DNA of 44,536 nt, taken from contig UQXK01000011.1 in the NCBI GenBank assembly GCA_900544985.1, forward strand, positions 1-44,536, read 5' to 3'. Below the pieces are notes generated by a model that was not told the DNA's origin, searched no databases, and saw only the letters and a program-made list of their open reading frames with translations. Of this stretch, positions 25,476 through 44,220 are shown piece by piece. Both the position numbers and the translations under genes were made by a program. This DNA is from an uncultured Eubacteriales bacterium (lineage in GTDB: Bacteria; Bacillota; Clostridia; Oscillospirales; CAG-272). Every line of letters begins with the position of its first letter. The first letter of the stretch is position 1.

Positions 25476-25490
25476 AAATGATATAGCGGT

Positions 25491-25695: not shown

Positions 25696-25705
25696 TTAGT
25701 TTTTC

Positions 25706-27844: not shown

Positions 27845-28696
27845 ATGGAAACAAACAAAATTTCAAACAGTTCTAATCAAAAACAAATTGACGAACTTAT
27901 GAAAAAAATCGAAAAAGAGCTTAGTAAGCCGGAAAATAAAATCGACATGAAACTTGTCGATAGTTATTTTGAGCAAATCGAAGAACTGAATGGAGGGATA
28001 TGCAAAAAAACAGATTCCGAGCTGGCGAAAGGACTTAATCAAATAAAAGAACAGGGTGATCGAATAAAAAAGACTCTTCCTACCGTTGCTCCTATGAAAA
28101 CGCAACCAATCAAAAGAACTATTCCTCTACGCAAACGTCTTGCAATCTCATTTGCAGCTGTATTTTTGGTAATTGCGCTGTCATTCTCCGTTGCCGCAGC
28201 TTCTCTCGGCGGATTCAGTAAAGCATGGATATACATTTCAAATTCCGTAAAAGAAATTTTCGGCATGGATTCCGGCGAAACAGAAATGGACGGCATTACT
28301 GTTATAAAAGGCAAATACAGCAAAAAATACAATACTATTGAAGAACTTTTGTCAAATGAGAACTTCGATGATATATTATATCCTTCAAAATTGCCGGAAA
28401 ATATAAAAATAAAGTCCGTCTCTCAAATTCAACTGAACGACGAACAATATACCTTAACATTTCAATTTAATTCAGATAATGTGAGGCTTCGTATTAATAA
28501 CTACTACGAAATTAATCTCTCTCTATTATCCGACTATACAATATATCAAGCAAACGGAATAGAATTTTATATATTACAAAAAGAAGACGGATATTATTCT
28601 ATCGCCCAATATGACGGAAAAGAATATTCCGCAAACTGCAATAACTACGAAGATCTGATCTATATTTTATCTAACATGAAAGGCTATTCTAAATGA
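27845..28696 (+). CDS. putative anti-sigma factor (cytoplasmic N-domain, single TM, extracytoplasmic domain)
   Basis: Topology, and position immediately after the ECF sigma gene. Confidence 0.45.
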   Translation: METNKISNSSNQKQIDELMKKIEKELSKPENKIDMKLVDSYFEQIEELNGGICKKTDSELAKGLNQIKEQGDRIKKTLPTVAPMKTQPIKRTIPLRKRLAISFAAVFLVIALSFSVAAASLGGFSKAWIYISNSVKEIFGMDSGETEMDGITVIKGKYSKKYNTIEELLSNENFDDILYPSKLPENIKIKSVSQIQLNDEQYTLTFQFNSDNVRLRINNYYEINLSLLSDYTIYQANGIEFYILQKEDGYYSIAQYDGKEYSANCNNYEDLIYILSNMKGYSK

Positions 28697-29082
28697 AAAA
28701 ATTTTTTGTTTTTATAATATCCGCAGTCCTCATACTTTCTATATGTTTTTCATCGACTGCCGCAAATATCCAATATACATATAATTACGGTAATGTAAGC
28801 GTAATATTTAATGACAATACCCATTTTTCGGAAGCTTCCCGCGAACATATAGCCGATATACTTGTCGGAAAAATTGGAGCGGATTCCGAAATCGAACCAT
28901 ATGGCATAGCCTGTCTTTTCGGTCATAAATATGTTACGGAAAATGTAATCACAATAACTCATTGTGTAAGTGAGACACAACCGAAATGCCTGAAAGAAAT
29001 TTTCGAAATAAGCGAATGTTCACGTTGCGGAAAAACAAAGACAGAAAGAATTGATTACTATTATATCACTTGCTGCCCGTAA
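28693..29082 (+). CDS. secreted small cysteine-rich protein (signal peptide; 129 aa)
   Basis: N-terminal MKKFFVFIISAVLILSICFSSTAA signal peptide. Seven Cys in the C-terminal half. Start overlaps the anti-sigma stop. Confidence 0.5.
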   Translation: MKKFFVFIISAVLILSICFSSTAANIQYTYNYGNVSVIFNDNTHFSEASREHIADILVGKIGADSEIEPYGIACLFGHKYVTENVITITHCVSETQPKCLKEIFEISECSRCGKTKTERIDYYYITCCP

Positions 29083-29356: not shown

Positions 29357-29698
29357 TTATACTGAATATGGGCGTCTGTAATTTTCAATAATTTTTTCAA
29401 ACAAAAAATTCTCTTCCGTTGAAAGTTTACTTTCCGAAATACTTTTCACTTTGATCAAAAGGGATATTTCCTCCGGCGTCATATATGCACGGTCCATCGT
29501 GTAATCGCCTACCACATATACTCCTCCGCCATATTTCCCTGCTTTTGTATCCAGAGGCATCATAAAAGTAAGTTCAAAAATATCTCTCTGTATTGTTCTC
29601 ACGGAAACACCGAATTTTTCGGCAAGAAAAGACATTGTCGCGTGCCTTTTTCTGCAAAGGTATTTCATGATTTCCAAACGTCTTTCGGCTGTCCCCAT
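29357..29698 (-). CDS. small HTH-domain protein (DeoR/WYL-N-terminal-like HTH), solitary paralog of 43852-44220
   Basis: MGTAERRLEIMKYLCRKRHATMSFLAEKFGVSVRTIQRDI. Clear paralogy to the protein at 43852-44220 (shared MGTAERR, GVSxRTIxRDI, GxYxGGVYVxxDYxMxRxYM). Confidence 0.6.
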   Translation of the reverse strand: MGTAERRLEIMKYLCRKRHATMSFLAEKFGVSVRTIQRDIFELTFMMPLDTKAGKYGGGVYVVGDYTMDRAYMTPEEISLLIKVKSISESKLSTEENFLFEKIIENYRRPYSV

Positions 29699-29835
29699 AA
29701 ATCACTTCCTTTCGCACAAACAAAAACATGACAAACAGCCAAACCAGCCACCTGTCATGCTCATATCTTAAAAATCGTGCGATGTACGAAGTGTTTTTAT
29801 CTTAAATTTTTATACTTTTCCAATAACTGAAAAAG

Positions 29836-30039
29836 TCAAACTATTATTGCAGAATCGTCTATTTTGTAAACTGTATTCTCATTTGAAATCTTTACTGCCA
29901 AAACATTCTTGCAGTTTTTGCATTTTATGATTATATCAGCTTTTTCGGAATTACTGTCCGATAATTTTGATATTGTTATCGTTTTATTTGAATCACAAGC
30001 TCTTCTGTTGCATATAGGACAAGGATACTCTTTTATCAT
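29836..30039 (-). CDS. small zinc-finger protein, phage Mu Com-like (67 aa)
   Basis: CPICNRRA...IKCKNCKN are two CxxC pairs in a ~65-aa protein. The call is tentative. Confidence 0.35.
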   Translation of the reverse strand: MIKEYPCPICNRRACDSNKTITISKLSDSNSEKADIIIKCKNCKNVLAVKISNENTVYKIDDSAIIV

Positions 30040-30113
30040 TTAATTCCTCCAATTTATTCGCAATTTTGCGAACACGCACGGCGAAAAATATATGGTGAAC
30101 AAACACCATATAT

Positions 30114-30872
30114 TTAAGTATATCGATATTTATTTTTAATAATGCCCAAATTAAGCATTCTTATCTGTACAGCCTTGCAAGATACCTGAAAAACATTTGC
30201 AATATCAGCGATAATACTGTTCAAACGCTTTTTCTCGGAAAATGTTTCGGGAACCGAAATATATTTTCCGCTTATTCCGTTCTTGCTCATTATCTTGTAC
30301 GTATAATTCACAAATACATTCATCGGCATAAGCAACGATGCCGCAAGAGCATCTGCCTGCCATTCGATCCAATCGTTATCCGTGATATTTTTCGTCTTAT
30401 TCAGTTCTACACTACGGCACGCTATATACGAAGACGAATCGCCGACCCGATTTCTTAAATTCTCGTTTTTTCTGCCATAATACGCTTTGTGCAAAATAAA
30501 ATGTGCCCCCTCATGCATCTGCGTATAACGTCGTCTGGTATACTGATCTATATTGTATAACGCAGGTGTGATCAGAATATTTCCAAAAGTCTCCTCCAAA
30601 ATGACAGGTTTAAACATATCATCATATGAAGGAATCTCAACGATATCGCTCATAACGATAAGTCCCAAAATTTTGGAGCCGAAAGGACCTATATATTTGC
30701 ATTTTACAACAAGACCGAGATAGTTTTCCAAAAAATCAACAGTATCCAAAGATGTCGGACGTTCAAGGTTTTGCGGAGCATATTCTCGGATAACACTGTC
30801 TGCAATATTTTCAATGTCATTTTTGGAGAGAATATAAAGACCGTTTTCTTTTTGAACGTACTCTGATTTCAT
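30114..30872 (-). CDS. ImmA/IrrE-family metallo-endopeptidase (DUF955)
   Basis: HEGAH is an HExxH motif, in YTQMHEGAHFILH context. Immediately downstream of an XRE gene. Confidence 0.7.
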   Translation of the reverse strand: MKSEYVQKENGLYILSKNDIENIADSVIREYAPQNLERPTSLDTVDFLENYLGLVVKCKYIGPFGSKILGLIVMSDIVEIPSYDDMFKPVILEETFGNILITPALYNIDQYTRRRYTQMHEGAHFILHKAYYGRKNENLRNRVGDSSSYIACRSVELNKTKNITDNDWIEWQADALAASLLMPMNVFVNYTYKIMSKNGISGKYISVPETFSEKKRLNSIIADIANVFQVSCKAVQIRMLNLGIIKNKYRYT

Positions 30873-30894
30873 AAAAAGGCACCTCAATAATACT

Positions 30895-31284
30895 TTAAGA
30901 GTTTTTTTGTTTGATAAACTTTATAAGTTCCATCCAGTCTTCATCGGTAAAATTATTGTCTTTTGCAGTTCGAAGCGCCATGCGTGCAGACGGCAATGAT
31001 TCAATATATTCATTGATATCGCTGTGCTGTCCGTTTTGGCTTATGCCTGCCAAATCGTAAAAAGTATTCAATTCATCGGTATCGGTAATTTCCAAGGCAC
31101 TTGCAAAAGTTTCGAGAAATTTTTCCGGGGCATGACGATTTCCCTTTTCTATATCACATAAATAAGCCGGTGATATCTTCACTTTTTCGGCAAAACCTCT
31201 TAAATTAAACCCAAGTTCCTCTCTTCTTTGTCTGACATATTCACCGAACGGTGAACTTACTTCCTTCATAACGGTATTCCCCAT
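30895..31284 (-). CDS. XRE-family HTH regulator (ImmR-like partner of ImmA)
   Basis: GFNLRGFAEKVKISPAYLCDIEKGNR is an HTH. Its stop is 7 nt from the ImmA start. Confidence 0.7.
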   Translation of the reverse strand: MGNTVMKEVSSPFGEYVRQRREELGFNLRGFAEKVKISPAYLCDIEKGNRHAPEKFLETFASALEITDTDELNTFYDLAGISQNGQHSDINEYIESLPSARMALRTAKDNNFTDEDWMELIKFIKQKNS

Positions 31285-31360: not shown

Positions 31361-31475
31361 ATAACACAATTATACAATATTTTCCCAATTATGTCAAGTG
31401 AACTATACTTCATGTTTATAAATATAATAAAGAAACTCATCACTTTCGCATTAACAAAAGTGATAAGTCCTTTTA

Positions 31476-32276
31476 TTATAATTCAGGTAAAATTTCAGGG
31501 AAAGAAAGCACTGATTTATCAGACGAATCGATTGCTATTATATATTTTTCGGACAATTTCGCATAACTTAATTTCGGAGCTTCACAAATAACTTTTTCAA
31601 AAAGTTTTTTTGCAGTGTCCTTATCTCCCGAATAATATTTTATAGCAGCAGTGTAAAAAACCTGACTCATCTTAATAATATTACTTGTTTTTGAAGTTTG
31701 TTTGTTAAATAAATCTTCTAATATTTTTTTGCATTCATCGAAATCTTCTTTTAAATAGCTTTCGAATAATTTTATAGTATTATCTTTTATTTTTTTCGCG
31801 CTATCCTTTTCATAGTTTCTGAATTTTTCACAAACTGTTTTTAATTTCTCATTGTCTCCAATATCAAAATAGACTCGCGAAAGTATCAAAAAATAATCAT
31901 ATTTATATTTTAAACTGCGCTTTCCTTTAATTACATTTGTGCACATATTTACTGCCATTTGATAATTTCCGGAATAATAGTAGTAAAGTACACGATATAA
32001 TTCACTCCTGCACATAATACATATTTTAGAATTTATTATCAAACCAAATTTTTCCGGATCCATATCTTTACACAAAACCGGCATATATAATTTTGCCTCT
32101 AATACCATGGTAAAAACAAGAAGCATAAAACCAAGAAAAATCAATAAAACAAGATATGCCCAAAATTTATCAAAAAAAATAATTTCCAATGCAATTAGCG
32201 ACATCATCAATAGAAAAAATATTGTCATCAAAACAAAATATTTCCTAATAATACTTTTAGCACTCTTATTATTCAT
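31476..32276 (-). CDS. multi-pass membrane protein with TPR-like C-terminal region; putative immunity protein for the RHS toxin
   Basis: Position directly downstream of the RHS C-terminal toxin domain. Three or four TM helices. The start is probably at MNNKSAKS. Confidence 0.5.
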   Translation of the reverse strand: MNNKSAKSIIRKYFVLMTIFFLLMMSLIALEIIFFDKFWAYLVLLIFLGFMLLVFTMVLEAKLYMPVLCKDMDPEKFGLIINSKICIMCRSELYRVLYYYYSGNYQMAVNMCTNVIKGKRSLKYKYDYFLILSRVYFDIGDNEKLKTVCEKFRNYEKDSAKKIKDNTIKLFESYLKEDFDECKKILEDLFNKQTSKTSNIIKMSQVFYTAAIKYYSGDKDTAKKLFEKVICEAPKLSYAKLSEKYIIAIDSSDKSVLSFPEILPEL

Positions 32277-32336
32277 AAATCCCCCTATAAAATTATTGCA
32301 CAAAAATTTATACCACAAAATCACCTATGATTTTAA

Positions 32337-35300
32337 TTATCCAAGTGCACCACCGGCAACAGCACCACCTACTATAAATCCTCCGATCTCCGAAATATAA
32401 GGTATTATTAGAGGACCAGCACAAGCTATAATTCCCCCTACTGCGACTGTACCAACAGTTATTGCACCGGCTGTAATCAGCCAGCTCCAATCATAACCGT
32501 CAGAGGGTTCTTCAACCTTTGGGGTAAAGACAATAACAGGTTCAGGAAATGGATTCTGTACTTTGCTCGGACTATTTTTTGAAAGAATCGGTGAGCCATT
32601 TGATTCATAAATAAAACTTTTTGGCACATCAGCTTTTTCTTTTCCTGGTAACATCGGAGGAAATTTATCCATGCCAATTGTAGTTGACACTGAATTCTTG
32701 TCGTCAATCTTCGTAGTTACAGTATATTCAGCATTAAGCATTCCTGTTTTGAATATCTTTACAGAAGCCGATATAGAACTAACATCATCTATATTTGCAG
32801 AATATGATAATTTTACTTCGTTATCCGAACATGAAATTGTCAAATTATCTTTCGATAATTTCAAGCTCTTTAAAGAATCATATTGTCCTTGTATAATCTT
32901 AGAAATATCAAACTCACCATTACCAAAAGTCGTTGAGACAGAAAAATAATATCTGGCTAATCCCACCAATATGCTTCCTTCATACGCCTCTATATCATGT
33001 GAATTAATTTTATCAAGGATATCATTCAAAGTACTCTCCATTTGATTTATACTGTTTCTCTCCGCACTTAGGCCAAACGGGTCTATGTTCGAAACAGGAT
33101 TGCCGTTTGCATATGCATAGCGATTAAGAGTTATCGCATTGGAAATTTCACCCGGCACTATATCCGCATTTATAAATCTTCTCAGTTCGGGAGAATAATA
33201 CCTTGCCCTCATGTACAAAAGACCGTTTGCATCGGTTATTACGCCGTCGCGTCCGTTGTACCCGAAGATAACAAAGCTTTCGCCTGTTCTGTTTATGAGT
33301 TTGCCGTAGGAGTCGTACTCGAACGTGTCTGTTACAGCCCCGCTCTCGTCCGTTATTGCAACGGTGCTGCCGCGGTAGTCATAGTGATACGTCTTGTACT
33401 CCCCGAATTTTTCTTCTCCGATAAGTCCCAGACCGTATACATATTTTGTAACTATTCCGTTCGTCATCTTTTGCAACAGCTGGCTTAATTTGCAGTTGGT
33501 ATTATACGTGTAAAGAGTTTCATAGCACTCTCTTACATTAAAGATTCGGTTATCTTCCGCGTCGTATGTATAATTCTGACCGCCCGCATATAAAAGTCTG
33601 TTCGCAGAGTCATATTCGAAATCCATAGGATCATCTTCTATTATAGAAGTGAGCATATTTCCGTCCATATCGTAGGAAATCGTCTTTCCATTATATGAAA
33701 GCAAACGGTTATCGGCGTCATATACAAAAGAATTATCTTCTTTATCGCCTGTGATATTGCCCGCCGCGTCATACGAATACGTTTCCTCGGAGAGTGTGAC
33801 ATTTGCAAAATTTTTGACAGTGCGTTTTGTAAGCCTTGACAGTTTATCATAAATATAGCACACTTTTATTTTTTTTGCAAGGTCTTTCTCTTCCGTTATT
33901 CTACTTAGTGTATCATAAACATATTCATAGCCCGTTATGACATCTCCGCCCACCGTACGTTCCACCGTAGATGTAACACGGTGTTTATTGTCATAGACCG
34001 TCGTAGTTACGCTTCCGTCGGGTTTTACAACACCTGTAACGTTGTTATTTTCATCATATGTATATGATGTTATCCTATTCGCCCAGTCTGTGACGGAAAT
34101 AAGATTATTGTTTGCATCATATGCATAATTTACCGCGGTATTATCCGGATAAACGATCTGCGTAAGGTTACCTACGGGGTCATATGTATAATTTATAGTA
34201 TAGCCGTAAGTATCCTTATACGATATAACGCGGTTGAGTGCATCGTACGTACGCGTTATAACGCCGTTTGAGCCCGTTACAGTGAGGACATTGCCATTGG
34301 CGTCATAAGTGTACCCGACAGAGTCTTCCTCGCTTACACAGCTCGTAATTCGACCGAGAACGTCATAGAAATATTTTCTATTCTGACCTCTGCCGTTTGT
34401 GAGCTGTTTTTTGACGTTCAGTTCATTATAAGTATACGATACGGCACCGCCGGACGATGTCGTCTCCTCAACAAGTCTTCCCATGTCGTCGTAAGTATAG
34501 CTTGTACTTCCGCCGAGAGGACCACAAAGTTTTGTAATATTGCCGAGAACATTATAATCCGCACTGCCGGAATTATTCAAAGCATCTTTTACAGATGTAT
34601 TTTGTCCGCGTGAATTATATGTATATTCTTTGCGGTTATTCATAGAATCGGTGACGCTTGCCACTTTGCCGAGAGCATTGTAGGTATACGATGTAGTCTT
34701 GCCTGCCGCGTCGGTAACCGATATCGGGAGATTCAGGCTGTTATACACTGTCTCGCTTATAGTATTGCCCTTCGCGTCCGTAGTTTTTACAACATTGCCG
34801 TTTGCGTCGTAAACAGTTGTAAATACATTGTTTTTAGCATCCGTGACGGTTGTACGTCTGCCGAGCGCATCGTAGCCGTATTTTACAACGTTATTTCTCG
34901 CGTCTTTGACGGAAACGAGCTGATTAAGCGAATTATACGTATACGTAGTGACATTATTAAGCGGATCTTTTACAGTGAGCAGATTATTATTTGCGTCATA
35001 GGTATATCTTGTAATATTGCCGCGTGCGTCTTTCGATGTAAGCATATTTCCGTATATGTCATATGTATACGTCTTTTTATTATTGAGCGCGTCAGTTTCG
35101 CTCAGAAGATCGCCTGCGGAAGAGTACGAATACACCGTTGCGCCGGAAACTGCATTCACTGCCCTTGTGACTTTTGACATGGCATTGTATTGATAACGAG
35201 TTATATTCCCCTCATTATCGGTAACGGAAAGCACATTGCCGTTTTTATCATACGTTTTTACAGTTGCAGCGCCGAGCGGATTTATCTCTTTTACGACATT

Positions 35301-38060
35301 GCCCGCAGAATCGTATTCATATTTCAAAACAGCGCCGTCGGGAAGCCTTTTTGAAACAATTCTGCCCGCGGGGTCATATGTGAGAGCAGTTACATTGCCC
35401 GCCTGATCCGTTATTTTAACGGGTCTGTCCTCGCCGTCAAACTCGTATTGCACCGTATTGCCGTCGGGCATGGTGACAACATCGTTTTTCATATTTCCGT
35501 TATAAGAATATTCGGTTTTATTGCCGTTGGCGTCTGTGACGGCAATTTTCTGGTTGTTGCAATCATACTCGTTGACAACAGATTTACCGTTGGCGTCGGT
35601 GGCCTTTATAAGATTGCCGACCGCGTCATATTCATACGACGTCACATTGTTTTCAGTATCTTTGCGGGAGACAAGCTGTCCTATATCGTTATAACCGTAC
35701 AGAATCGTGTTGTTCATCGCGTCGGTTTCGGACATAAGCAAGCCGTTACTATATGAATATCTTACGGCATTTCTGCTTCCGGTCTTTTGAGTAGCGGGAA
35801 GCGAATGAGAATCATAAGTATATACGGTCGCCATGCCGCGAAGATCTGTATGTTTTACGATTTGGTTTCTGTCGTTATACTCAAATGTTTCAACAGGAGT
35901 CTTCCCCTCGTTTACGGGATAAGTTATCTTTGTGATATTACCCTTGCTATCGTATGTAAACGTTGTCTTTTTGCCGTTTTTATCGGTTATTTCCGTCGGC
36001 TTGTTAAAGATGTTATATGTTTTCAATACGGAATTTCCGTTCGCGTCCGTTTCCTTTACGACATTGTAGCACGCGTCATATTCATAGGTCTTTGCGTTTC
36101 CGTTCGCGTCGGTAATACTCGAAAGAAGACCGTTCTCATCATACATTCGTATGCTTTGTTTTCCGTTGCGGTCAGTTGTGATTCTTTTTCCGTCGCTTTC
36201 GTAAACGAATGTCGTGGGATTCGAACCGGGGATTCCGTCTTTTTGAGAAATAACACGACCGTAAACATCGTATGTATTTTCAAAATATTTTACGTTGTTT
36301 GCGTCGGTACCGGACTTAATCAATCCTTCGGGAGTATACGTATACGTGATGCTGTTTCCGTTTACATCGCAAATAGATTTCAAAAGATCTCCTTCGTATG
36401 TAAAAGAAGCTTTCCTCGCCGCGTCATCATAGACTTTTATTATCTTTCCGGATAAATCTTTTTCAATATATATTTTCTTTCCCGATACGGAATCCGTAAC
36501 GGTAATTAAATTTTCGGAATAATCTATCAAAGTTTCAAAGCCGTTATGATTTATTATTTTAGATATATAACCGTCATTGTTGTAAAGTTCTTTTCTCTCG
36601 GAATTGCAATCCACAATGTACGGATATTCTGCCGAGCAGTCCACCTGTAAAACATATCCACCCTTATTTACGGATGTGCAGTAATAAACATTCTCTTCGC
36701 CGTTCGATACGTATCTCGAATATACGGACGGATTACTGTATATCAAAATGCCGTCCTCTGCAATTTCCAAATGTTTTTCATAGTTATGATACCATCCGGT
36801 TCCGAGTGTTCCGGAAGTCAGTTTTGTGGAATCGTAACTTGCGGTAAACCCCAGTCCCTGCCCGCCGAATAAAGTAATGATATTATTGTTTATCATATGA
36901 GCGCCGCTGTATGCGTCTACCGGATCCGCAACAAGACCGTCGTTCAATATAGGCTTGTCCTCAGACTCCGCAGGAGATACCGCTGTCTGTTTAACCGTTA
37001 CATCGCAATAATCTTTCACTTTCCCGTCAAACGACGTAGCACAGATTTTGGTTTTTCCGACACCGATAGCCGTGACATCACCTTTAGATTCATCGACAAT
37101 AACAATACTCGTATCCATGCTGCTCCATGTTACTTTTTTCTTCGTCGCATTCAAAGGCAAAACAGTTGCGCAGAGTTTTGTCGTTCCGCCTTTGTACAGC
37201 TCAATCGAATTTTGGCTGAGCTCTATACACTCCGCATAGACAGGATCTATTACGGTTATGATACACTCGCCGAAAATGCCGCTTCCGTTTGTTGAAACAG
37301 CGCGTATTCGCGCGGTACCTACTTTTTTTGCATATACCAAAGGATCATTAGGATTTACCGTTGCAATTTCCGGATCCATACTTATCCACTTTATAACTTT
37401 ATCATCTGCATCAGCAGGACAAAACACGGCACGGAGATAAACGGATGTAGCCCATCTCAAAGTATACTTATCCGGAATTACTTTTATAGCTTCAAGAGGA
37501 ATATAATTCTTTTTTACTACCTGTACATGGCATTTTGCGCTCACCCCGCTTCCGTCATTGGCTGTTGCGGTTACATATGTGCAGCCTTCGGATACACCGT
37601 ATACATCTCCGCCGTTCACAAATGCGATCATCTGGTCATCGCTCTTCCAACTGACGGATTTGTTTTTCGCGTTACTCGGCAATACGGTTACGTCAAGAGA
37701 AGAACATTCTTTTTCTCTCAAAAGTAAACTATCCGGATGCAAAAAGACAGAGCTCACTTTTATAACATCCTCTACATCAGTTACATTTACGGTCGCATAT
37801 CCTCTGGCACCGCTTCCGTCCACCGCGACGGCGTAAATGAGAGTTGTGCCCGCAGCTTTTGCATATACATATCCGCTGAATTCATTTACGGTTGCAACAT
37901 TCGGATTGTCACTGTACCATTTTACACTTTTTAATGTTGCGTATTCCGGGCATACCGTTACCGTTATGTCGTAATACCATTCTCCCTTTTTTATCGTTAT
38001 TTGTTGCGGACAAACAGTTACAGAACTTACACCTATCATATTTCTTCCTCCCGTATCCAT
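32337..38060 (-). CDS. RHS/YD-repeat polymorphic toxin (1907 aa) with N-terminal Big_2 Ig-like domains and C-terminal glycine-zipper membrane-active toxin domain
   Basis: Several Big_2-like units (e.g. SVKWYSDNPNVATVN). Dozens of YD repeats (YTYDxxGN...). RHS core end YMRARYYSPELRRFINADIV...NPVSNIDPFGL. A ~330-aa variable C-terminus ends in GxxxG-rich TM segments. Confidence 0.9.
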   Translation of the reverse strand: MDTGGRNMIGVSSVTVCPQQITIKKGEWYYDITVTVCPEYATLKSVKWYSDNPNVATVNEFSGYVYAKAAGTTLIYAVAVDGSGARGYATVNVTDVEDVIKVSSVFLHPDSLLLREKECSSLDVTVLPSNAKNKSVSWKSDDQMIAFVNGGDVYGVSEGCTYVTATANDGSGVSAKCHVQVVKKNYIPLEAIKVIPDKYTLRWATSVYLRAVFCPADADDKVIKWISMDPEIATVNPNDPLVYAKKVGTARIRAVSTNGSGIFGECIITVIDPVYAECIELSQNSIELYKGGTTKLCATVLPLNATKKKVTWSSMDTSIVIVDESKGDVTAIGVGKTKICATSFDGKVKDYCDVTVKQTAVSPAESEDKPILNDGLVADPVDAYSGAHMINNNIITLFGGQGLGFTASYDSTKLTSGTLGTGWYHNYEKHLEIAEDGILIYSNPSVYSRYVSNGEENVYYCTSVNKGGYVLQVDCSAEYPYIVDCNSERKELYNNDGYISKIINHNGFETLIDYSENLITVTDSVSGKKIYIEKDLSGKIIKVYDDAARKASFTYEGDLLKSICDVNGNSITYTYTPEGLIKSGTDANNVKYFENTYDVYGRVISQKDGIPGSNPTTFVYESDGKRITTDRNGKQSIRMYDENGLLSSITDANGNAKTYEYDACYNVVKETDANGNSVLKTYNIFNKPTEITDKNGKKTTFTYDSKGNITKITYPVNEGKTPVETFEYNDRNQIVKHTDLRGMATVYTYDSHSLPATQKTGSRNAVRYSYSNGLLMSETDAMNNTILYGYNDIGQLVSRKDTENNVTSYEYDAVGNLIKATDANGKSVVNEYDCNNQKIAVTDANGNKTEYSYNGNMKNDVVTMPDGNTVQYEFDGEDRPVKITDQAGNVTALTYDPAGRIVSKRLPDGAVLKYEYDSAGNVVKEINPLGAATVKTYDKNGNVLSVTDNEGNITRYQYNAMSKVTRAVNAVSGATVYSYSSAGDLLSETDALNNKKTYTYDIYGNMLTSKDARGNITRYTYDANNNLLTVKDPLNNVTTYTYNSLNQLVSVKDARNNVVKYGYDALGRRTTVTDAKNNVFTTVYDANGNVVKTTDAKGNTISETVYNSLNLPISVTDAAGKTTSYTYNALGKVASVTDSMNNRKEYTYNSRGQNTSVKDALNNSGSADYNVLGNITKLCGPLGGSTSYTYDDMGRLVEETTSSGGAVSYTYNELNVKKQLTNGRGQNRKYFYDVLGRITSCVSEEDSVGYTYDANGNVLTVTGSNGVITRTYDALNRVISYKDTYGYTINYTYDPVGNLTQIVYPDNTAVNYAYDANNNLISVTDWANRITSYTYDENNNVTGVVKPDGSVTTTVYDNKHRVTSTVERTVGGDVITGYEYVYDTLSRITEEKDLAKKIKVCYIYDKLSRLTKRTVKNFANVTLSEETYSYDAAGNITGDKEDNSFVYDADNRLLSYNGKTISYDMDGNMLTSIIEDDPMDFEYDSANRLLYAGGQNYTYDAEDNRIFNVRECYETLYTYNTNCKLSQLLQKMTNGIVTKYVYGLGLIGEEKFGEYKTYHYDYRGSTVAITDESGAVTDTFEYDSYGKLINRTGESFVIFGYNGRDGVITDANGLLYMRARYYSPELRRFINADIVPGEISNAITLNRYAYANGNPVSNIDPFGLSAERNSINQMESTLNDILDKINSHDIEAYEGSILVGLARYYFSVSTTFGNGEFDISKIIQGQYDSLKSLKLSKDNLTISCSDNEVKLSYSANIDDVSSISASVKIFKTGMLNAEYTVTTKIDDKNSVSTTIGMDKFPPMLPGKEKADVPKSFIYESNGSPILSKNSPSKVQNPFPEPVIVFTPKVEEPSDGYDWSWLITAGAITVGTVAVGGIIACAGPLIIPYISEIGGFIVGGAVAGGALG

Positions 38061-38866
38061 TAAAACATATTATCGATAATGATATCCGCTCTTCGCATAA
38101 GATCGACATTGAATGTCGTTTCCATGCCTTTGTCATCGTGTATGGGATGACAGTCTTTTCCGTATTGCCAGATCGCTATATCGTTTCTTGTGATACCGGA
38201 GGGCGCAAAAGGAATCCAGTTATCGGGATGAATAAGGTGCGTTGTCGTTACTCGTTCGTACTCCGAAAGGCTCGGGGAGACTGTCCAGATAAGACATTTT
38301 GAGAATATCTCTCTATCGGTCTGCATTCCTCTGCTGTATTCGCGGTCAAAATCATATTTTGCATCTGTATTTACTTTAAATCCGGAAACATATCCTTCCG
38401 AAATCAATACTTCTGCAAAACCGCGCATACAGTCGGTCGTAAATTCTTCCTTTTCGCCTATCTCAAAGAAAATAGCGGTATCTTCCGGAATTTCAAGTTC
38501 AAATGCGGTGACAATGACCTTTTTGGCAATGAGCTTTCCCTGTTCCGCCGTCTTCTTTTCTCCTGCATCACTGTAAATCGCAGCGATTTTGCAGCCTTTA
38601 TCATGAAGAAAATCAATTTCTTTTTTTGTAAGACAGTTTTCGCCTACAATATTTCTTCCCCAGAAATTGGGATAAAGCTTGTTGCGCACGACCCATTCAA
38701 ATTCATTTATATTGTTTTGGAGAAGATCATCCGCCGGGATTCTGGAATCCACACCGAACAAAAGTCTGTCAATTTTCGAAACAACTTTTTTCTCTGTTGT
38801 CGCAGGCTGAACATTGTCAGCCATATTGTTTATATTTTTTATTTTCAGTGCATTTTTGCATGCCAT
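38060..38866 (-). CDS. putative DUF1906-like (glycoside-hydrolase-like TIM-barrel) protein, translationally coupled to the RHS gene
   Basis: TAATG stop/start overlap with the RHS gene. Weak pattern resemblance to the DUF1906/Rv2525c-like family (FGVDSRIPADDL...NFWGRNI...LTKKEIDFLHDKGCKIAAIY). Confidence 0.35.
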   Translation of the reverse strand: MACKNALKIKNINNMADNVQPATTEKKVVSKIDRLLFGVDSRIPADDLLQNNINEFEWVVRNKLYPNFWGRNIVGENCLTKKEIDFLHDKGCKIAAIYSDAGEKKTAEQGKLIAKKVIVTAFELEIPEDTAIFFEIGEKEEFTTDCMRGFAEVLISEGYVSGFKVNTDAKYDFDREYSRGMQTDREIFSKCLIWTVSPSLSEYERVTTTHLIHPDNWIPFAPSGITRNDIAIWQYGKDCHPIHDDKGMETTFNVDLMRRADIIIDNMF

Positions 38867-38981: not shown

Positions 38982-39551
38982 TTATATCGCAACCTCGTAT
39001 TTTCTTTCGAAAAAGCGGTCGGATTTACTTTTGGATTTTCCTATACGGTTGAAAAATTCTTCTGTATCGGCTATATGCCCTTTCGAAACAAGAATCTCCG
39101 CAACTTCATATATAAGCTTCATCGCGTCCGCCTCATGACCTTTTAAATATTCAGTTTCAAGTTCATAATCCGCGCACCCGATATAATTGTTGCTGTCCAA
39201 AACCATTTCACAAAAACGGTCTTTGAACAATACCGTTCTTTTCGTATAAAGACATCCCGAAAATTGCAGACCTTTTACGCCGAATACATCGGCATCAAAG
39301 CAACTTTTTACCTTCAAAGTTTTCTCAATACTCTTATCGGGAAAATCGGTATTATGACTTTTTACCGTAGCTTCTGTTTTATCGCCTTTTTGACGTATGC
39401 GGTATGTAAATCCCTTGCGGTACATATCAAGATTTTCTGTGTCAAAGTAGTAATTCGTTTGAGAATACGAACGCTTGTCATTTCCCAACATTCCCAGAAT
39501 CGTTAAATACTCCTTAAAAGTAAGAAGTATCTTTTTTTCATATTCGATCAT
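38982..39551 (-). CDS. CYTH-domain (triphosphate tunnel metalloenzyme) protein
   Basis: N-terminal MIEYEKKILL is the ExExK motif. Size ~190 aa. Confidence 0.6.
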   Translation of the reverse strand: MIEYEKKILLTFKEYLTILGMLGNDKRSYSQTNYYFDTENLDMYRKGFTYRIRQKGDKTEATVKSHNTDFPDKSIEKTLKVKSCFDADVFGVKGLQFSGCLYTKRTVLFKDRFCEMVLDSNNYIGCADYELETEYLKGHEADAMKLIYEVAEILVSKGHIADTEEFFNRIGKSKSKSDRFFERKYEVAI

Positions 39552-39552
39552 C

Positions 39553-40920
39553 TCACGCGCTCCTTATTATCTTGCCTGACCCGTTTTTCGGGAGTTCTTC
39601 TACTATTTCAATACAGTCCGGAACCTGAAACGCAGGAAGATATTTAAGGCACATGCTCTTCACTTCTTTTACGGAAGAAAAATCTCCGCAGATCTTCATG
39701 CCGATTTTCATTGTCCGCTCGGTTTTTATGCCGTATGCGAATACTTCCTTTACACGAGGAGCGTTTTTGAGCGCCGCTTCGATTTCAGCTGGATAAATGT
39801 TCATTCCCGATCTTATTATCATATCGTCACTTCTTCCCTTGATCCGAATCAATCCGGAATCATTCATTAAAGCGATGTCCCCCGTACAGAGCCAACCGTC
39901 TTTCAAGACGGCTTTTGTTTTTTCATCGTCATTATAGTATCCGACCATGACATTAGGTCCCCTTACCCAAAGCACGCCTTCTTTTCCGTTTAAAACGGGA
40001 TTTCCGTTTTTATCCGCTAATTTCACGGAAACCGATTTTAGGGGAATGCCGACATATTCGGGAAATTCCGAAAACTTTTCCGGCGGAAGATACAAAACAC
40101 GCGGCGAAGCTTCCGTCAATCCGTAAATATGATATATCTTGCTGCCTTTAAACGCATCTTTTAAACGAAGACCTGTATCGCGGCTCATGCACTCTCCGCT
40201 TGCGCAAATATATTTAAGCGTTTCTGCCATATTGTTCCGATTATACGCCGACATCATTTCAAGAAGCGTCGGTGTTCCGCAAAAAGCAGTTATCTTATAT
40301 TCATGTATCATTTTCAGAATTTCGGGCGGGTTGAATTTTTCCGAATAGAAACGTATCTTTGTCCCTTTAATTAAGGAAACAAGAAATTCACCCGTTAAAA
40401 CCGCAGAATGATAAAGCGGTCTTGAAATCAATATACTGTCCGTCGTACCGATTCCAAAATAAGACGCGATATCGGAAACATTCGAAATAATATTTTCCTC
40501 GCTCAGCATAGCGCCTTTCGGTCTTCCCGTAGTCCCGGAAGTACACATTATAAGCGCGGGACGGGTAGCGGGAGTTTTATATTTACTGTCCGAAATTTTT
40601 CGTATGAGGAAATCATCTTTCTCGTCGGTAATAACTGCTTCGGGATCTACTGTTTCAATGATCTTGTTGCAGTGTATGGCACCGTAACGCATAGACAAAG
40701 GAATCGCCGTAACATCGGCGGCAAAACATCCGAGCAACGCCATCGCCGCCGCCATCTCGGATTTGCAAAGTATAGCGCAGCTTTTTATTCCTTCAAGTCT
40801 TTTTGAAAACAATTCCGCCCATACTGCAAGTTCCTCAAAAGAAAGTTCGGCATTTCCTTCACATACGATTTGATCATAATGACATAACATATTCTCTTTT
40901 ATGTAGTTCCAAAGTTTCAT
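39553..40920 (-). CDS. AMP-dependent synthetase/ligase (acyl-CoA or acyl-ACP ligase, ANL superfamily)
   Basis: TSGTTGRPKG P-loop motif. C-terminal GDIAL...GRSDDMI...GSGKI adenylation motifs. Confidence 0.8.
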   Translation of the reverse strand: MKLWNYIKENMLCHYDQIVCEGNAELSFEELAVWAELFSKRLEGIKSCAILCKSEMAAAMALLGCFAADVTAIPLSMRYGAIHCNKIIETVDPEAVITDEKDDFLIRKISDSKYKTPATRPALIMCTSGTTGRPKGAMLSEENIISNVSDIASYFGIGTTDSILISRPLYHSAVLTGEFLVSLIKGTKIRFYSEKFNPPEILKMIHEYKITAFCGTPTLLEMMSAYNRNNMAETLKYICASGECMSRDTGLRLKDAFKGSKIYHIYGLTEASPRVLYLPPEKFSEFPEYVGIPLKSVSVKLADKNGNPVLNGKEGVLWVRGPNVMVGYYNDDEKTKAVLKDGWLCTGDIALMNDSGLIRIKGRSDDMIIRSGMNIYPAEIEAALKNAPRVKEVFAYGIKTERTMKIGMKICGDFSSVKEVKSMCLKYLPAFQVPDCIEIVEELPKNGSGKIIRSA

Positions 40921-41924
40921 TTGTTTTTCCCTCCTGTCTTCTCTATAAGCTCACCGAGAAGACGCTTTTCATTTTCTTTTGATAAAAGCAAACTTTTCCC
41001 GATAATCGGCAATACGGAATCCCGCCTTTTTATACAGTGCGAAGCATATAGCATGCGCATATTATTCGCGTCACCGACCAATTTTCTGTATTTTTTACTG
41101 ATATCGGGATTTATATCAAAATTCTCCTCGATTCGTTCTGTTACTTCAAGCATCAGCTTTTTATGCTCCCAAAGTAATCGGAATACGCGGCGGTCGATCG
41201 ATTCATAAGGGATAGCCCCCGCAGAAAGTTTTTCAATGTATTTTTCTATGTAATCGTATACGGCAATTCCGTATACGATCCCTTCCCCATCCCACGGGTA
41301 TTTTTCTATCGTCGAATCAAGATATTCGGATATTTTTCCCATGGCTGTTTCGGGAGAAAACTCCGCCTTGTCCTTTTTGGGTTTAATCCCGTAGATTTTG
41401 CCGTATACTCCCTTTTCGAACATCGCTTTTCTCGCCTTTTCGAATGAAGACTTCGGAGTCCAGAATTTGTTGTATACCCAATTACTGTCATAAGCATACA
41501 TACAATATGTCTTGTCATCACGGTTGTATCCGCATATCATACCGTCATGGCTGAAATGACGCTCTTTATACCACGTCTTTCCTTCTATGTAATAATCATC
41601 AACATCGACAAAATAAACATAATATCCCGCGTCCAGTAAATTATGAATAAGAGGATTTACGTACCCGCCGAGAAATTCCATGCCGTAAAAATTCTTATCC
41701 AAATAAGGATTTAATTTCCAATGTGAATTCACGATATCAAGCTCCGGACTCGAAAATCCCGATAGAAATCTCCTGCTGCAATAAGGTATTATCGTTTGAT
41801 TCAAATACCAATTTTTTATGGAAGGATTATCACAAATCACAGCCGAACCAACGCCTTGGACCTGATATGTACCATATATAGGCGATACCAAAGGAAGCTC
41901 AACCGACTTTTTCATAGTTATCAC
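40917..41924 (-). CDS. hypothetical protein (335 aa); possibly a papain-fold acyl-ACP-dependent acyltransferase (BtrH-like) - speculative
   Basis: Overlapping stop/start with the ACP and ligase genes. No motif could be confirmed by eye. Confidence 0.4.
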   Translation of the reverse strand: MITMKKSVELPLVSPIYGTYQVQGVGSAVICDNPSIKNWYLNQTIIPYCSRRFLSGFSSPELDIVNSHWKLNPYLDKNFYGMEFLGGYVNPLIHNLLDAGYYVYFVDVDDYYIEGKTWYKERHFSHDGMICGYNRDDKTYCMYAYDSNWVYNKFWTPKSSFEKARKAMFEKGVYGKIYGIKPKKDKAEFSPETAMGKISEYLDSTIEKYPWDGEGIVYGIAVYDYIEKYIEKLSAGAIPYESIDRRVFRLLWEHKKLMLEVTERIEENFDINPDISKKYRKLVGDANNMRMLYASHCIKRRDSVLPIIGKSLLLSKENEKRLLGELIEKTGGKNK

Positions 41925-42153
41925 CCGTATACTTTCTTACAAGTTCAACGACATCTCCGACGGTTATCAGATCAAAAGGATTCAAATCAGATTCGTTTAA
42001 TTCTATCTTGAATTCGCTTTCAATATCCAAAAGTAAATTGACCAGAGCAAGGCTGTCAAGCGCAAGATCATTCTCCAAGCTATCCTCCGATGACACCTCG
42101 GCTTCCCCGCTCATACTTTTTAATATTTCCGCAACTTTTTCAAATACTGCCAT
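41899..42153 (-). CDS. acyl carrier protein (stand-alone, pathway-dedicated)
   Basis: DLALDSLALVNLLLDIESEF carries the phosphopantetheine-attachment DSL motif. 84 aa, acidic. Confidence 0.8.
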   Translation of the reverse strand: MAVFEKVAEILKSMSGEAEVSSEDSLENDLALDSLALVNLLLDIESEFKIELNESDLNPFDLITVGDVVELVRKYTGDNYEKVG

Positions 42154-42781
42154 TTTTCATCCTTTCTATTTCCCTTTTTACAATTTCATAACTCTCTTCT
42201 TCGGGACACTCTGTTGAAATAAGAACACCGTTATTCGCATTGCAGATATCTATATACTCATTTCTGAGTTTGTACTGCAAATCCATATCGATATAGCGGT
42301 CCTTTTCGCCGGAACGGGCGCGAACGCGTTCGACGGCTTTTTCCACAGAAACATCAAAAAAGAACGCTATATCAGGCTTTATAACCGACTTGGCTATCTC
42401 ATATATCCATTCATCGTTCTTAAAACCTCTGGCGCGAAGATTTGCAAGACAAGAATAAAAATACCTGTCGCTTAGTACGATCCTGCCTTCATTCATTGCA
42501 GGCTCGATTACTTTATTTACATGTTGCAGACGGTCGCTCGCCGCAAGAAGAGAGAGACTTCTGTAATCAAAATCATCATGGCAAGGAGAATCCATATAAT
42601 TCCTGAAAATTTTAGATTCACGCACGTAATTTGTGGGCTGCTTTGTAAGAAAAAGTTCGTTGTCCGTTTTCAGGTCCGAAAAAATACGATTAAGCATCGT
42701 TGTTTTTCCGCATCCGTCAAGTCCGCAGACCGTTATTAAAAATCCGCGTGTTTTATTTTCACGCATATCGAGTTTTCTCAT
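42140..42781 (-). CDS. thymidylate-kinase-family P-loop (deoxy)nucleotide kinase
   Basis: GLDGCGKTT P-loop and LSDRYFYS (DRY motif), as in dTMP kinase. Confidence 0.65.
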   Translation of the reverse strand: MRKLDMRENKTRGFLITVCGLDGCGKTTMLNRIFSDLKTDNELFLTKQPTNYVRESKIFRNYMDSPCHDDFDYRSLSLLAASDRLQHVNKVIEPAMNEGRIVLSDRYFYSCLANLRARGFKNDEWIYEIAKSVIKPDIAFFFDVSVEKAVERVRARSGEKDRYIDMDLQYKLRNEYIDICNANNGVLISTECPEEESYEIVKREIERMKNGSI

Positions 42782-43848
42782 GTTTTCTTCACCTCCGTTA
42801 AATCTCTTTTTCTGTCCTCCATAAAAAAGCGCTTTGTAATATCATCTGTTTTATAAAGAAAGACTTTTTTGTCTTTCGGCGAAATAACTCTTCTCAGAAA
42901 GTTTTTGTCATCTTCTAAAACTTTTTTCGATTCTTCTGCGATCTTCGAATCAAAAATATCAAACAGCTCCGCCGTTTCATATATAGCGTAAGCACAGATT
43001 TTTTCCATTCCCAATTCTTTTGCTCTTTTTTGCAAAGTCTTAAATTCAAAATCGGTCATTCCACTCAGAAGAAGATAAATATCGCAATATTTGTAAAGAG
43101 TCATATCGCGTCGCATTTCGATCCACGGGAGAGTTGTCGCCTCTTTATACAAATGCGAGCAAAGATGAATAAAAAAATCCGTCTTATCGAGAGTGGGAAT
43201 TTTCATTTTCCCGACTTTTGTAAAAGATGATCTTTCCAGCATAGATGACAATATATCAGTATTTCCGTTTTTATAATCCAGCGAAAAATTTATATCAACC
43301 TCCAAAAATCTCATATGAGGAAGATTCACTTCTTTAATGTACGGCACTGTTTCCCCGCGCATCATTTTTGATTCAATTATCTCTTTGCGTGCAGCAGGAA
43401 CAAATTCTCCGTTTCTGATATTTCCTTGCCTGAATCCTGATTTCAGAAGAATATCTGCTATTTTGCCGATATCCTCCGGCATTACAAGTAAATCGATATC
43501 ATTCGATGTACGGTACCCCTCCGGATAATAGGCGCACAAAAACGCGCCTTTAAGCATCACCGCCTTACAATCAAGGAGAATATCCGAAAGAAATTTCACA
43601 CATTTAAAAAAGCTCTTGTTTTTCTCTTGATTATATTCATAAGCGGATTGCAAAGAGCTTTTAAATTCGCGGTTTACTTTTCCGAGCAAACCGTGCTTTT
43701 TTAACGTTCCGTATGCTATTCCCTGCATTCGATTGAAAAATATCTGTCCGAGTACATTGGCGTTAGCATACGGTATCAACGATTCGTCAAAATCATTATT
43801 TTGAAATTTACATAACTCTTTAAATAACAATTTTTCTTTTTGTTTCAT
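42778..43848 (-). CDS. Pol-beta-superfamily nucleotidyltransferase (uncharacterised NTP_transf_5-like family)
   Basis: GYRTSNDIDLLV is a [GS]...DxD NTase motif. ~356 aa. Confidence 0.5.
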   Translation of the reverse strand: MKQKEKLLFKELCKFQNNDFDESLIPYANANVLGQIFFNRMQGIAYGTLKKHGLLGKVNREFKSSLQSAYEYNQEKNKSFFKCVKFLSDILLDCKAVMLKGAFLCAYYPEGYRTSNDIDLLVMPEDIGKIADILLKSGFRQGNIRNGEFVPAARKEIIESKMMRGETVPYIKEVNLPHMRFLEVDINFSLDYKNGNTDILSSMLERSSFTKVGKMKIPTLDKTDFFIHLCSHLYKEATTLPWIEMRRDMTLYKYCDIYLLLSGMTDFEFKTLQKRAKELGMEKICAYAIYETAELFDIFDSKIAEESKKVLEDDKNFLRRVISPKDKKVFLYKTDDITKRFFMEDRKRDLTEVKKT

Positions 43849-43851
43849 ATA

Positions 43852-44220
43852 TTATTTTCCTTTCTTAAATATAGGTTTTGAATAAAGTGAGATAATAGAG
43901 GCAAGCGTATTTTTCTCATCATGTGTCAGTATTGAATCATCTCTGTCAGCTGCAACAAATAATTTTTTCAGTACGTTCAATTCCCGATCGCTCATATACA
44001 TTCGCTCCATATGATAATCTTCCATAACATATACACCGCCGTAATATCTTCCCGTTTGTGTATATATAGGTTCGGAAATACTTATCGCCTCTATATCTCT
44101 TCTGATAGTTCTTTCGGAAACGCCGAATTCAAAAGCCAGATTTTGTATCGTCTCATATCTGCGAGAACATAATAATTTCAATATCCCGCTTCGTCTTTCG
44201 GCAGTTCCCATTTTGCTCAC
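43852..44220 (-). CDS. small HTH-domain protein, first gene of the operon of seven genes that ends with the CYTH gene (paralog of 29357-29698)
   Basis: MGTAERRSGILKLLCSRRYETIQNLAFEFGVSERTIRRDI. Its stop is 3 nt from the NTase start. Confidence 0.6.
   Translation of the reverse strand: MSKMGTAERRSGILKLLCSRRYETIQNLAFEFGVSERTIRRDIEAISISEPIYTQTGRYYGGVYVMEDYHMERMYMSDRELNVLKKLFVAADRDDSILTHDEKNTLASIISLYSKPIFKKGK

Follow-up and report, generated by a model that had tools for sequence, protein, structure and literature searches.

A leaderless RHS polymorphic toxin with a probable membrane-targeting tip and a DUF1906 partner in gut Oscillospirales

Contig UQXK01000011.1 of assembly GCA_900544985.1, which belongs to an uncultured Eubacteriales bacterium (Oscillospirales, CAG-272) and was analysed here over positions 1 to 44,536, a stretch of 44,536 nucleotides (nt; hereafter the window), encodes a large RHS protein with Ig-like domains at its N-terminus, a hydrophobic C-terminal tip and a membrane protein encoded directly behind it. 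The locus raises the question of what such a protein attacks, how its producer would be protected and how a toxin of this size could leave the cell without a signal peptide. Considering all lines of evidence, the explanation that we favour, with moderate confidence, is that of an interbacterial RHS toxin which carries a probable membrane-attacking tip and which, with lower confidence, would be set free by a lysis-type release. The elements of the toxin locus are listed below. Positions are those of the window, and related loci and proteins are denoted by L and P numbers, respectively.

31433..31470, minus strand: terminator-like hairpin with 17 pairs and a T-run, directly after the stop codon of the immunity gene (consensus scan only)
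31476..32276, minus strand: predicted cognate immunity gene, 266 amino acids (aa), two N-terminal transmembrane (TM) helices and an all-helical repeat domain
32337..38060, minus strand: RHS polymorphic toxin gene, maximal open reading frame (ORF) of 1907 aa, likely start at ATG 38039 (M8), which gives 1900 aa
32340..33068, minus strand: variable toxin tip, 243 aa (aa 1665-1907)
32340-32498, minus strand: Gly-rich two-helix hydrophobic tail of the tip
32499-32663, minus strand: Pro-rich disordered linker of the tip
32664-32996, minus strand: helix and seven-strand beta domain of the tip (tip aa ~25-135; AlphaFold2, AF2)
33069..36737, minus strand: YD/RHS repeat shell, ending in the Rhs-associated core (aa 1582-1664; Pfam/NCBIfam)
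36738..36926, minus strand: DUF6531, N-terminal plug of the RHS cage (Pfam PF20148, E 1.4e-9, aa 379-441)
36975..38039, minus strand: N-terminal array of four Big_2 Ig-like domains (Pfam Big_2, E 4e-40, 4 stretches)
38060..38866, minus strand: DUF1906/Rv2525c-like partner, 268 aa, GH25-like TIM barrel (PF08924, E 2.7e-7)

The RHS protein and its tip-immunity cassette

The maximal ORF of the toxin gene begins at 38060 and shares 1 nt with the stop codon of the upstream gene in a TAATG overlap. The true start is probably M8, since a GGGAGG ribosome-binding site lies 7 nt ahead of it and since the orthologues as well as two independent gene calls begin there. A first reading of the bare sequence, referred to here as the original prediction, had described an ORF of 1907 aa with Big_2 domains, YD repeats and an RHS core. 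All of these are present and the C-terminal sequence that it quoted matches exactly, but its residue numbers were off by about 80: the DPFGL motif, placed at about residue 1580, occupies aa 1660-1664, and the variable C-terminus comprises 243 aa (1665-1907) and not about 330. The assignment as an RHS polymorphic toxin holds, as the domains are in place, the homology between strains stops exactly after the DPFGL codon and sister strains carry other tips at this position (see below).

The repeat shell was recognised by RHS_repeat (PF05593, E 4.5e-137, 17 stretches) and TIGR01643 (E 9.5e-101), and the core at its end by Rhs_assc_core (TIGR03696, E 1e-16). In a search against PDB sequences, the shell matched the Rhs cages 7q97 and 8h8b of type VI secretion systems (T6SS) and Tse5 8cp6 (E 4e-34); all bacterial RHS cages that this search recovered from solved structures are associated with T6SS. 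Tse5 (RhsP1, PA2684) of Pseudomonas aeruginosa resembles the window protein in its cage with a DUF6531 plug, its C-terminal D...DPxGL motif and the immunity gene directly downstream; the plug role of DUF6531 is taken from the Tse5 structure (PMC10684867). Whereas Tse5 is a T6SS-mounted protein of a Gram-negative bacterium with a cleaved N-terminal fragment, the window protein stems from the Clostridia (Bacillota) and starts with a leaderless Big_2 array. The aspartates D1633 (in RFINAD) and D1660 (in DPFGL) of the core are both conserved in the family alignment. By analogy with D1141/D1164 of Tse5, which is cleaved between L1168 and I1169 (PMC10684867), we infer that they form an aspartyl-protease motif and that the window protein would cleave itself between L1664 and S1665. 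Pfam detected no LXG, WXG, PAAR, VgrG, MuF or wall-binding domain in the RHS protein, and a Kyte-Doolittle analysis of the whole protein revealed a single TM-like stretch of about 50 residues at aa ~1860-1902, which lies within the tip.

The tip and its partner gene have a GC content of 0.30-0.33, compared to 0.40-0.44 in the shell. AF2 modelled the beta domain of the tip with a predicted local distance difference test (pLDDT) score of 65-83 and the remainder with low confidence. No known toxin domain was recognised by profile and sequence searches, as neither Pfam (E<=10, tip alone), PHROGs (E<=0.001) nor PDB sequences (E<=10) returned a match to the tip, and a scan of the whole protein against NCBIfam (E<=0.01) returned none in the tip region. 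These blank searches, together with the absence of conserved catalytic-type residues, indicate that the tip is not a known cytoplasmic-enzyme toxin, in agreement with the membrane-type tip of the original prediction.

Among 5.8 billion clusters, the tip has just 10 close relatives. All of them are orphan cassettes, that is, short ORFs which start inside the core tail, (M/V)IFGYNGRDG...DPFGL, and continue into the tip. An exhaustive HMMER scan of 1.84 billion representatives returned 28 matches and, with three exceptions, those inspected are RHS tips that share the short helix, the beta domain of about 110 aa, the Pro-rich linker and a hydrophobic tail. The exceptions (P0136, P0147 and P0154) are large multi-repeat proteins whose matches were judged to be compositional and which were not taken into the family; two of them carry SpaA/SdrD or cadherin adhesin repeats, and P0147 showed sub-threshold matches only. 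Conserved positions of the family are Q62, G49, G51, Y89, S90, Y115, T119 and G132 as well as R4 beside the cleavage site, while the alignment contains no conserved His, Asp, Glu, Cys or Lys. All members have the beta domain and some form of hydrophobic tail, which is a Gly-rich two-helix hairpin in the window allele, a single TM helix in P0007 and P0009, and a hairpin built around a G.G[IV]x[ND]D[IP]P loop in more distant members. As judged from sequence comparison, the tip and its 10 close and about 25 distant relatives represent a small, RHS-only family without annotation.

The 266-aa gene is located 60 nt downstream of the toxin gene. It most likely starts at ATG 32276, which is preceded by GGGGGA; a 282-aa form with a GTG start is the maximal ORF only. 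The two TM helices of its product span aa ~6-34 and 38-68 (nt ~32073-32276), and the helical domain behind them is predicted to be cytoplasmic according to the positive-inside rule. The original prediction had described a multi-TM, TPR-like protein. It was correct in so far as this is a membrane protein, but the TM helices number two and the match to TPR_6 is sub-threshold (E 4e-4, 21 bits compared to a cut-off of 26). An AF2 model of the protein that was based on three sequences was all-helical and of low confidence, which fits two TM helices followed by a helical repeat and is no proof of a TPR fold.

That this gene is the cognate immunity gene, as had also been proposed, is supported by the fact that it travels with the tip as a cassette in every locus and co-varies with it. 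In each distinct pairing, the gene behind the tip encodes a protein with hydrophobic helices at its N-terminus. In L011, which belongs to another species, the partner is 32% identical to the window immunity protein over its full length (E 7e-31), and the tip ahead of it belongs to the same family with 25-30% identity to the window tip. P0009 and its partner P0133 represent a natural swap: the beta domain of P0009 is 72% identical to that of the window tip and its single-TM tail is unrelated (19%), while P0133 is 92% identical to the window protein in its soluble domain and has diverged to 37% in the TM region. Because the TM region of P0133 and the tail of P0009 diverge together, this one comparison suggests that the TM region of the immunity protein may recognise the toxin tail. 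We are highly confident that the tip and the 266-aa gene constitute a toxin/immunity cassette. The hairpin behind it is predicted to mark the end of a DUF1906-RHS-immunity transcription unit.

The DUF1906 partner and a possible route of release

The original prediction of an Ig-like N-terminus without signal peptide or LXG domain proved right. Counted from M8, the Big_2 array begins at residue 2, and no hydrophobic h-region was detected at the N-terminus of the window protein or of the 60-odd orthologous effectors. The maximum 10-aa hydropathy in the first 35 aa of the window protein is 1.9, with a median of 1.14 across the orthologues, and two reference signal peptides scored 2.7-3.1. The N-termini of these orthologues share the pattern M-x-x-V-N-S-V-x-V-x-P.

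These features set the protein apart from several known classes of exported toxins. Like the window protein, WapA of Bacillus subtilis is a YD-repeat toxin of the Bacillota that combines a variable tip with an immunity gene located downstream. The same applies to WapA of Streptococcus suis (PMC12704120). WapA proteins carry a Sec signal peptide as well as wall-binding domains, and those of their tips that have been characterised are nucleases, whereas the window protein lacks a signal peptide and wall-binding domains and has a membrane-type tip; with no hydrophobic h-region and, by Pfam, no cell-wall-binding domain, it is not a Sec-dependent, wall-associated toxin of the WapA type. It also differs from the LXG/WXG100 effectors of type VII secretion systems (T7SS) in its Big_2 N-terminus and in the upstream gene, which encodes the 268-aa, TIM-barrel-like DUF1906 protein. 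From T6SS Rhs effectors it is distinguished by the lack of a PAAR or VgrG domain and by its clostridial host (Bacillota), and from phage-borne MuF toxins by the lack of a MuF domain and by neighbouring genes with housekeeping or regulatory functions.

The DUF1906 protein matched PDB 1sfs (E 1.9e-11), and Kyte-Doolittle analysis revealed no signal peptide. We found 771 homologues, the best 120 of which are 63-100% identical to the window protein; the metagenome-assembled genome HGM12677, the GTDB representative of this human-gut lineage of Clostridia, encodes a protein with 99% identity. The relatives are annotated as Acutalibacteraceae, Oscillospiraceae or Eubacteriales. Among 75 Oscillospirales loci from species-representative genomes, 71 encode DUF1906 directly upstream of an effector whose Big_2 array begins at residue 2, at a distance of at most a few tens of bases. 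Complete effector ORFs were available in 48 cases, 11 of which scored as RHS proteins, while 37 are shorter non-RHS proteins with other C-terminal domains. Because of this coupling and the mixture of effector types, DUF1906 and the Big_2 leader are the constant module of a polymorphic effector family in which RHS is one payload format. The non-RHS payloads include DUF3289, a lipase-like alpha/beta hydrolase, Ricin together with Rv2525c, and a 'GH...NNC' domain that doubles as an RHS tip in L006 and L007. In L085, the C-terminal payload is a second Rv2525c-like domain, the same as in the DUF1906 partner.

Leaderless Big_2 non-RHS effectors with a DUF1906 partner are found, for example, at L035:7544-8812, L048:10778-12466, L085:10726-13497 and L057:10855-12474. 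In the DUF1906 proteins themselves, residues 1-8 (MACKxAxK) are near-invariant among 24 homologues with 63-73% identity (M1, A2, C3 and A6); this motif precedes the TIM-barrel-like domain and may be a recognition or modification site.

A possible route of export emerged from the relatives of the window. An XhlA-like gene lies by the DUF1906-effector genes in 13 of the 75 loci, mostly together with a Phage_holin_5_2 holin and/or an Amidase_2 endolysin. The following cassettes are located directly upstream of DUF1906-effector pairs and share the strand of the flanking effector genes:

L033:8116-9783, between effectors: XhlA-like (hemolysin phrog_937)/Phage_holin_5_2/Amidase_2 cassette
L048:8162-9829, between effectors: the same type of cassette
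L052:8161-9828, between effectors: the same type of cassette
L030:8134-9903, between effectors: the same type of cassette
L051:7464-8894, between effectors: the same type of cassette

In L048, L052 and L089, the lysis cassette sits behind an HTH_31-M78-HTH_11 module that is homologous to window positions 29357-31284 (clusters 23/22/32/4). A prophage origin of the cassettes was considered and rejected, as the ORFs scanned around them in L033 and L048 encode effectors, a metallophosphatase, a permease, ParB and a recombinase and include neither capsid nor tail families.

That large toxins without a leader can leave the cell with the help of a holin is established for Tc toxins (PMC10847048), as in Yersinia, and for TcdA/TcdB of Clostridioides difficile (PMC3369941), where TcdE/TcdL act as the phage-derived lysis genes; the Tc cargo TcB/TcC is itself an RHS cocoon (PMC10847048) like the window toxin. 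Compared to these type 10-like systems, the window has no holin or endolysin, the link to lysis comes from the 13 related loci, and a DUF1906 partner is not part of those systems. By analogy, we tentatively propose that the toxin and the DUF1906 protein would be released together through holin/endolysin-type lysis or permeabilisation of a producer subpopulation, a route of RHS export that would bypass Sec, T6SS and T7SS. The DUF1906 protein, which is GH25-like and probably peptidoglycan-cleaving, would help the 210-kDa cage to cross the peptidoglycan. The DUF1906/Rv2525c family has been proposed, from structure, to act as peptidoglycan hydrolases (Bellinzoni et al. 2014, as cited in PMC12419801). 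It may further be speculated, with no greater confidence, that the leaderless Big_2 array and DUF1906, joined in some of the loci by an XhlA-like/holin/amidase cassette that is controlled by an ImmR/ImmA-like switch, represent an undescribed effector release system of gut Oscillospirales. In such a system, a stress-induced subpopulation would lyse in a colicin- or type 10-like manner and free RHS cages, lipases, DUF3289 effectors and wall hydrolases, a dedicated wall-cutting partner would leave the cell together with the effectors, and the window would be one RHS-carrying instance.

Several observations speak against a release by lysis. Muramidase activity is not known for DUF1906, and the window protein gave no PHROG match. 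Lysis genes were sought within the 44.5-kb window by tblastn with the XhlA, holin and amidase sequences of L033, which gave nothing significant, and 62 of the 75 related loci contain no lysis cassette within 10 kb. The latter would equally fit a dedicated exporter that is encoded elsewhere, for instance a T7SSb variant, an ABC-type or other transporter or a contractile injection system, with DUF1906 as a chaperone or adaptor and the lysis cassettes as incidental prophage remnants; the evidence covers a window of 44.5 kb. It would also account for the fact that DUF1906 is far more conserved than the effectors it precedes, as is the case for T6SS and T7SS adaptors and chaperones, and for the mobile-element DNA near the L048 cassette, where a serine recombinase, ParB and an HTH-M78 gene follow 5-9 kb downstream. 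Nevertheless, we consider a dedicated exporter somewhat less likely than release by lysis. The RHS protein lacks the LXG, WXG, PAAR, VgrG and MuF domains searched for with Pfam, and there is no secretion ATPase family among the 25 most widely shared gene clusters of the 75 loci, of which only some are annotated. Moreover, the lysis cassettes lie on the same strand as and between the effectors, behind the very HTH_31-M78-HTH_11 module that follows the immunity gene in the window, and the DUF1906 fold is that of a GH25-like hydrolase, a domain that the L085 effector uses as its C-terminal payload.

Proposed action of the tip on the target cell

Within the producer, the RHS shell would enclose the hydrophobic tip and cleave itself after L1664, and enclosure and cleavage would keep the tip in solution and the producer unharmed. 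Outside the cell, the Ig domains may bind the surface of a neighbour and the tip would be set free. Its two-helix, Gly-rich hairpin would then insert into the cytoplasmic membrane, oligomerise and dissipate the membrane potential, while the immunity protein would block the tip within the membrane, with its TM region tracking the tail and its soluble domain tracking the beta domain. We regard it as fairly probable that the tip targets membranes, and the formation of a pore is plausible by analogy with the systems described below.

Tse5 offers a precedent for a Rhs cage that delivers an encapsulated pore-forming fragment: the small hydrophobic fragment held in its cage enters the membrane of the target cell and causes depolarisation (PMC10684867, PMC9637101). 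Membrane immunity proteins are also known for the glycine-zipper toxin EsxX (PMC12744356), and ionophore toxins have been described among the effectors of contact-dependent growth inhibition (CDI; PMC11630599). EsxX, TelE and the CdiA-CT ionophores share with the window tip a short, Gly-rich hydrophobic segment at the C-terminus that is presumed to be lethal, as well as a membrane immunity protein (PMC12744356, PMC11630599). They differ from it in their LXG or CdiA delivery domains and dedicated secretion machines. Tox-WTIP is, like the window tip, an RHS tip with two TM helices that was predicted to be pore-forming (Zhang et al. 2012, PMC3482391). It is proteobacterial and has RxxR and Wx[ST]IP motifs, whereas the window tip lacks these motifs and matches no Pfam family at E<=10.

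The membrane-attacking tip also faces objections. In the PDB sequence search, no similarity was detected between the tip and any solved protein, Tse5 included, and none was found to the glycine-zipper and pore-forming toxins Tse5-CT, EsxX, TelE and the CDI ionophores; compared to Tse5, it adds the beta domain of about 110 aa and the Pro-rich linker. AF2 confidence for the tail is below 40, and TM helices as well as signal peptides were called with Kyte-Doolittle windows only. The glycine zipper itself requires caution. The original prediction of a GxxxG-rich hydrophobic C-terminus was right about a hydrophobic stretch, which spans about 50 rather than 60 residues, and the window tail contains three GxxxG motifs, among them a GxxxGxxxG (GAVAGGALG) at the very end of the protein. 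However, the number of motifs does not exceed that in shuffled sequences of the same composition with 25% Gly (p ~0.6), and the zipper is limited to the window allele and its close relatives and missing in distant members. Finally, there is a topology problem: the soluble domain of the immunity protein is predicted to be cytoplasmic, yet a toxin that inserts from outside leaves its beta domain outside.

In an alternative reading, the toxic activity resides in the beta domain, e.g. through binding or sequestration of a lipid or a cell-wall precursor at the surface of the membrane, and the tail only anchors this domain or takes it across the membrane of the target. The beta domain is indeed the conserved part of the family, while two-helix zippers, single TM helices and G.G[IV]x[ND]D[IP]P hairpins are exchanged as tails, and in Tde1, a DNase effector of the T6SS, the glycine zipper is needed for translocation and not for toxicity (PMC10240207). 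We consider this alternative unlikely, since no catalytic-type residues are conserved in the tip family and since the TM region of the partner, a membrane protein, changes together with the tail, which fits a tail that has to be neutralised. It is very unlikely that the protein is not antibacterial at all, i.e. that it is directed against host or eukaryotic cells or against phage in the style of the TcB/TcC cocoon and that the downstream gene does not confer immunity. RHS cocoons do occur in insecticidal Tc toxins freed by lysis (PMC10847048), and Big_2 domains are common in adhesins and phage proteins. The locus contains no TcA-like or TcB-like partner, however; a tightly linked, co-varying partner for each tip and arrays of orphan tips with partners are the self-protection signature of an antibacterial toxin, and several sister effectors carry lipase-like or peptidoglycan-hydrolase-like payloads that are typical of antibacterial effectors.

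Exchange of tip cassettes and the surrounding genes

The same shells are found with different tips in closely related strains. L001 and L006 are sister strains with ~95% nt identity to the window, in which the gene order is CYTH, DUF1906 and an RHS gene with another tip and partner, followed by a first orphan tip with its partner and then by the window tip with the 266-aa gene. The window lacks 3.5 kb (main tip, immunity gene, first orphan tip and its immunity gene) that are located in L001 and L006 between two copies of a repeat derived from the core tail:

33079..33399, minus strand: core-tail segment of ~320 nt, repeated before every orphan cassette in the sister strains (blastn)

In L001 and L006, blastn matched this segment both to the main gene and to the copy at the second orphan cassette, and the copies are 88-96% identical to each other. 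On this basis, the repeat appears to be the recombination substrate that joined the window tip to the main gene. L017, which belongs to the same species, aligns to the window as far as nt 33068, the first base past the DPFGL codon, and continues with another tip. Altogether, three different tips are found on the ~95%-identical shells of four sister strains, while one strain has the tip of the window. The fusion of shell and tip seen in the window recurs in L092 (contig k127_118714 of the human gut sample ERR414233), which is probably the same record as the window, and in L093, an independent sample and assembly (ERZ28595641) in which the immunity gene is followed by the first orphan cassette of L001. 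Given that L092 and L093 carry the fusion, the latter with the L001 orphan cassette downstream, comparison of the strains indicates that the fusion is real and that cassettes are shuffled between strains. An assembly artefact, in which the assembler collapsed the ~320-nt repeat, is most improbable: although the window stems from a metagenome contig, L092 is probably no independent record and the junction falls within the repeat, the reading frame is intact, a simple collapse of L001 would not give the other downstream content of the independent L093 assembly, and the displacement of main tips by orphans is known behaviour of Rhs loci, for which orphan modules have been described (PMC3150448).

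The selection of orphan Rhs tips in Salmonella is a parallel for such a displacement. In orphan Rhs/CDI modules, tip and immunity cassettes follow a core fragment and recombination there changes the expressed tip (PMC3150448); the window appears to reflect the same process.

Some of the other tips are of interest in their own right. The RHS genes of the sister strains at L001:1376-6955 and L017:10107-15824 carry other unannotated tips. The main-gene tip of L001 opens with a hydrophobic, Gly-rich segment, SFLLSLGFVALGAVIGGVVNAV, which makes it a candidate for another membrane-type tip. Both the tip of L017 and the first orphan tip of L001 start with KGFLSGLWN and contain a GYxGCE...H pattern that is suggestive of a papain-like fold.

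On either side of the toxin locus, the window contains the following features:

29357..31284, minus strand: regulatory module after the immunity gene; a homologous module precedes the lysis cassette in relatives
29357-29698, minus strand: HTH_11
29836-30039, minus strand: 67-aa Zn-ribbon-like protein
30114-30887, minus strand: M78/ImmA-like peptidase
30895-31284, minus strand: HTH_31
31369-31397, minus strand: perfect sigma-70 consensus (TTGACA, 17 nt, TATAAT) after the hairpin of the toxin operon and before the HTH_31/M78 (ImmR/ImmA-like) pair (consensus scan)
38982..44220, minus strand: seven-gene operon upstream of DUF1906, with HTH_11, NTP_transf_5, a dTMP-kinase-like P-loop protein, a PP-binding carrier, a 335-aa protein, an AMP-binding ligase and CYTH
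41899-42153, minus strand: 84-aa PP-binding carrier of this operon

The upstream operon looks, from its gene content, like an acyl- or aminoacyl-carrier pathway combined with nucleotide enzymes. Its gene order recurs in ~20 of 68 DUF1906 loci from different species, and its 335-aa protein has no family match even at E<=10. PADLOC gave no hits to the operon, and an assignment as a defence system was rejected.

Positions 26839-29082 (plus strand) hold a divergent unit of four genes. Their products are an HTH_3 regulator, an ECF-like sigma factor (Sigma70_r2/r4) and two proteins of 283 and 129 aa, the latter of which is Cys-rich and has a signal-peptide-like N-terminus. This unit occupies the site at which L048 and L052 hold the lysis cassette and a second effector. 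An integrase-bounded island at 19040-26620 (minus strand) encodes an SPFH/Band_7 protein (659 aa), a 232-aa protein, a TIR_2 protein (598 aa), a Trypsin_2 protease (325 aa) and a 150-aa protein. For the protease, PADLOC gave weak hits, which concern the protease components of RT-Protease and LmuA. The island is missing in L001 and partially present (integrase and Band_7) in L006 and L092, and we regard it as a candidate defence island.

RHS toxins are well studied in the T6SS systems of Gram-negative bacteria. The present locus is of an already known kind in that it holds an RHS polymorphic toxin, orphan shuffling and a membrane-type tip. Compared to the searchable literature, the tip family, the immunity family and the module of DUF1906 and leaderless Big_2 array with its recurrent lysis cassette appear to be new, and in the literature searched we found no paper that ties DUF1906 to Rhs. 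The locus provides a concrete tip/immunity pair of unannotated families, including a natural swap in which tail and TM region co-vary, as well as strain-resolved evidence for the shuffling of tip cassettes in the human gut. With DUF1906 and the recurrent lysis cassette, the question of export turns into a specific hypothesis. If true, the release model would add a delivery route for polymorphic toxins in a major clade of gut bacteria and would give a function to a widespread DUF1906 subfamily.

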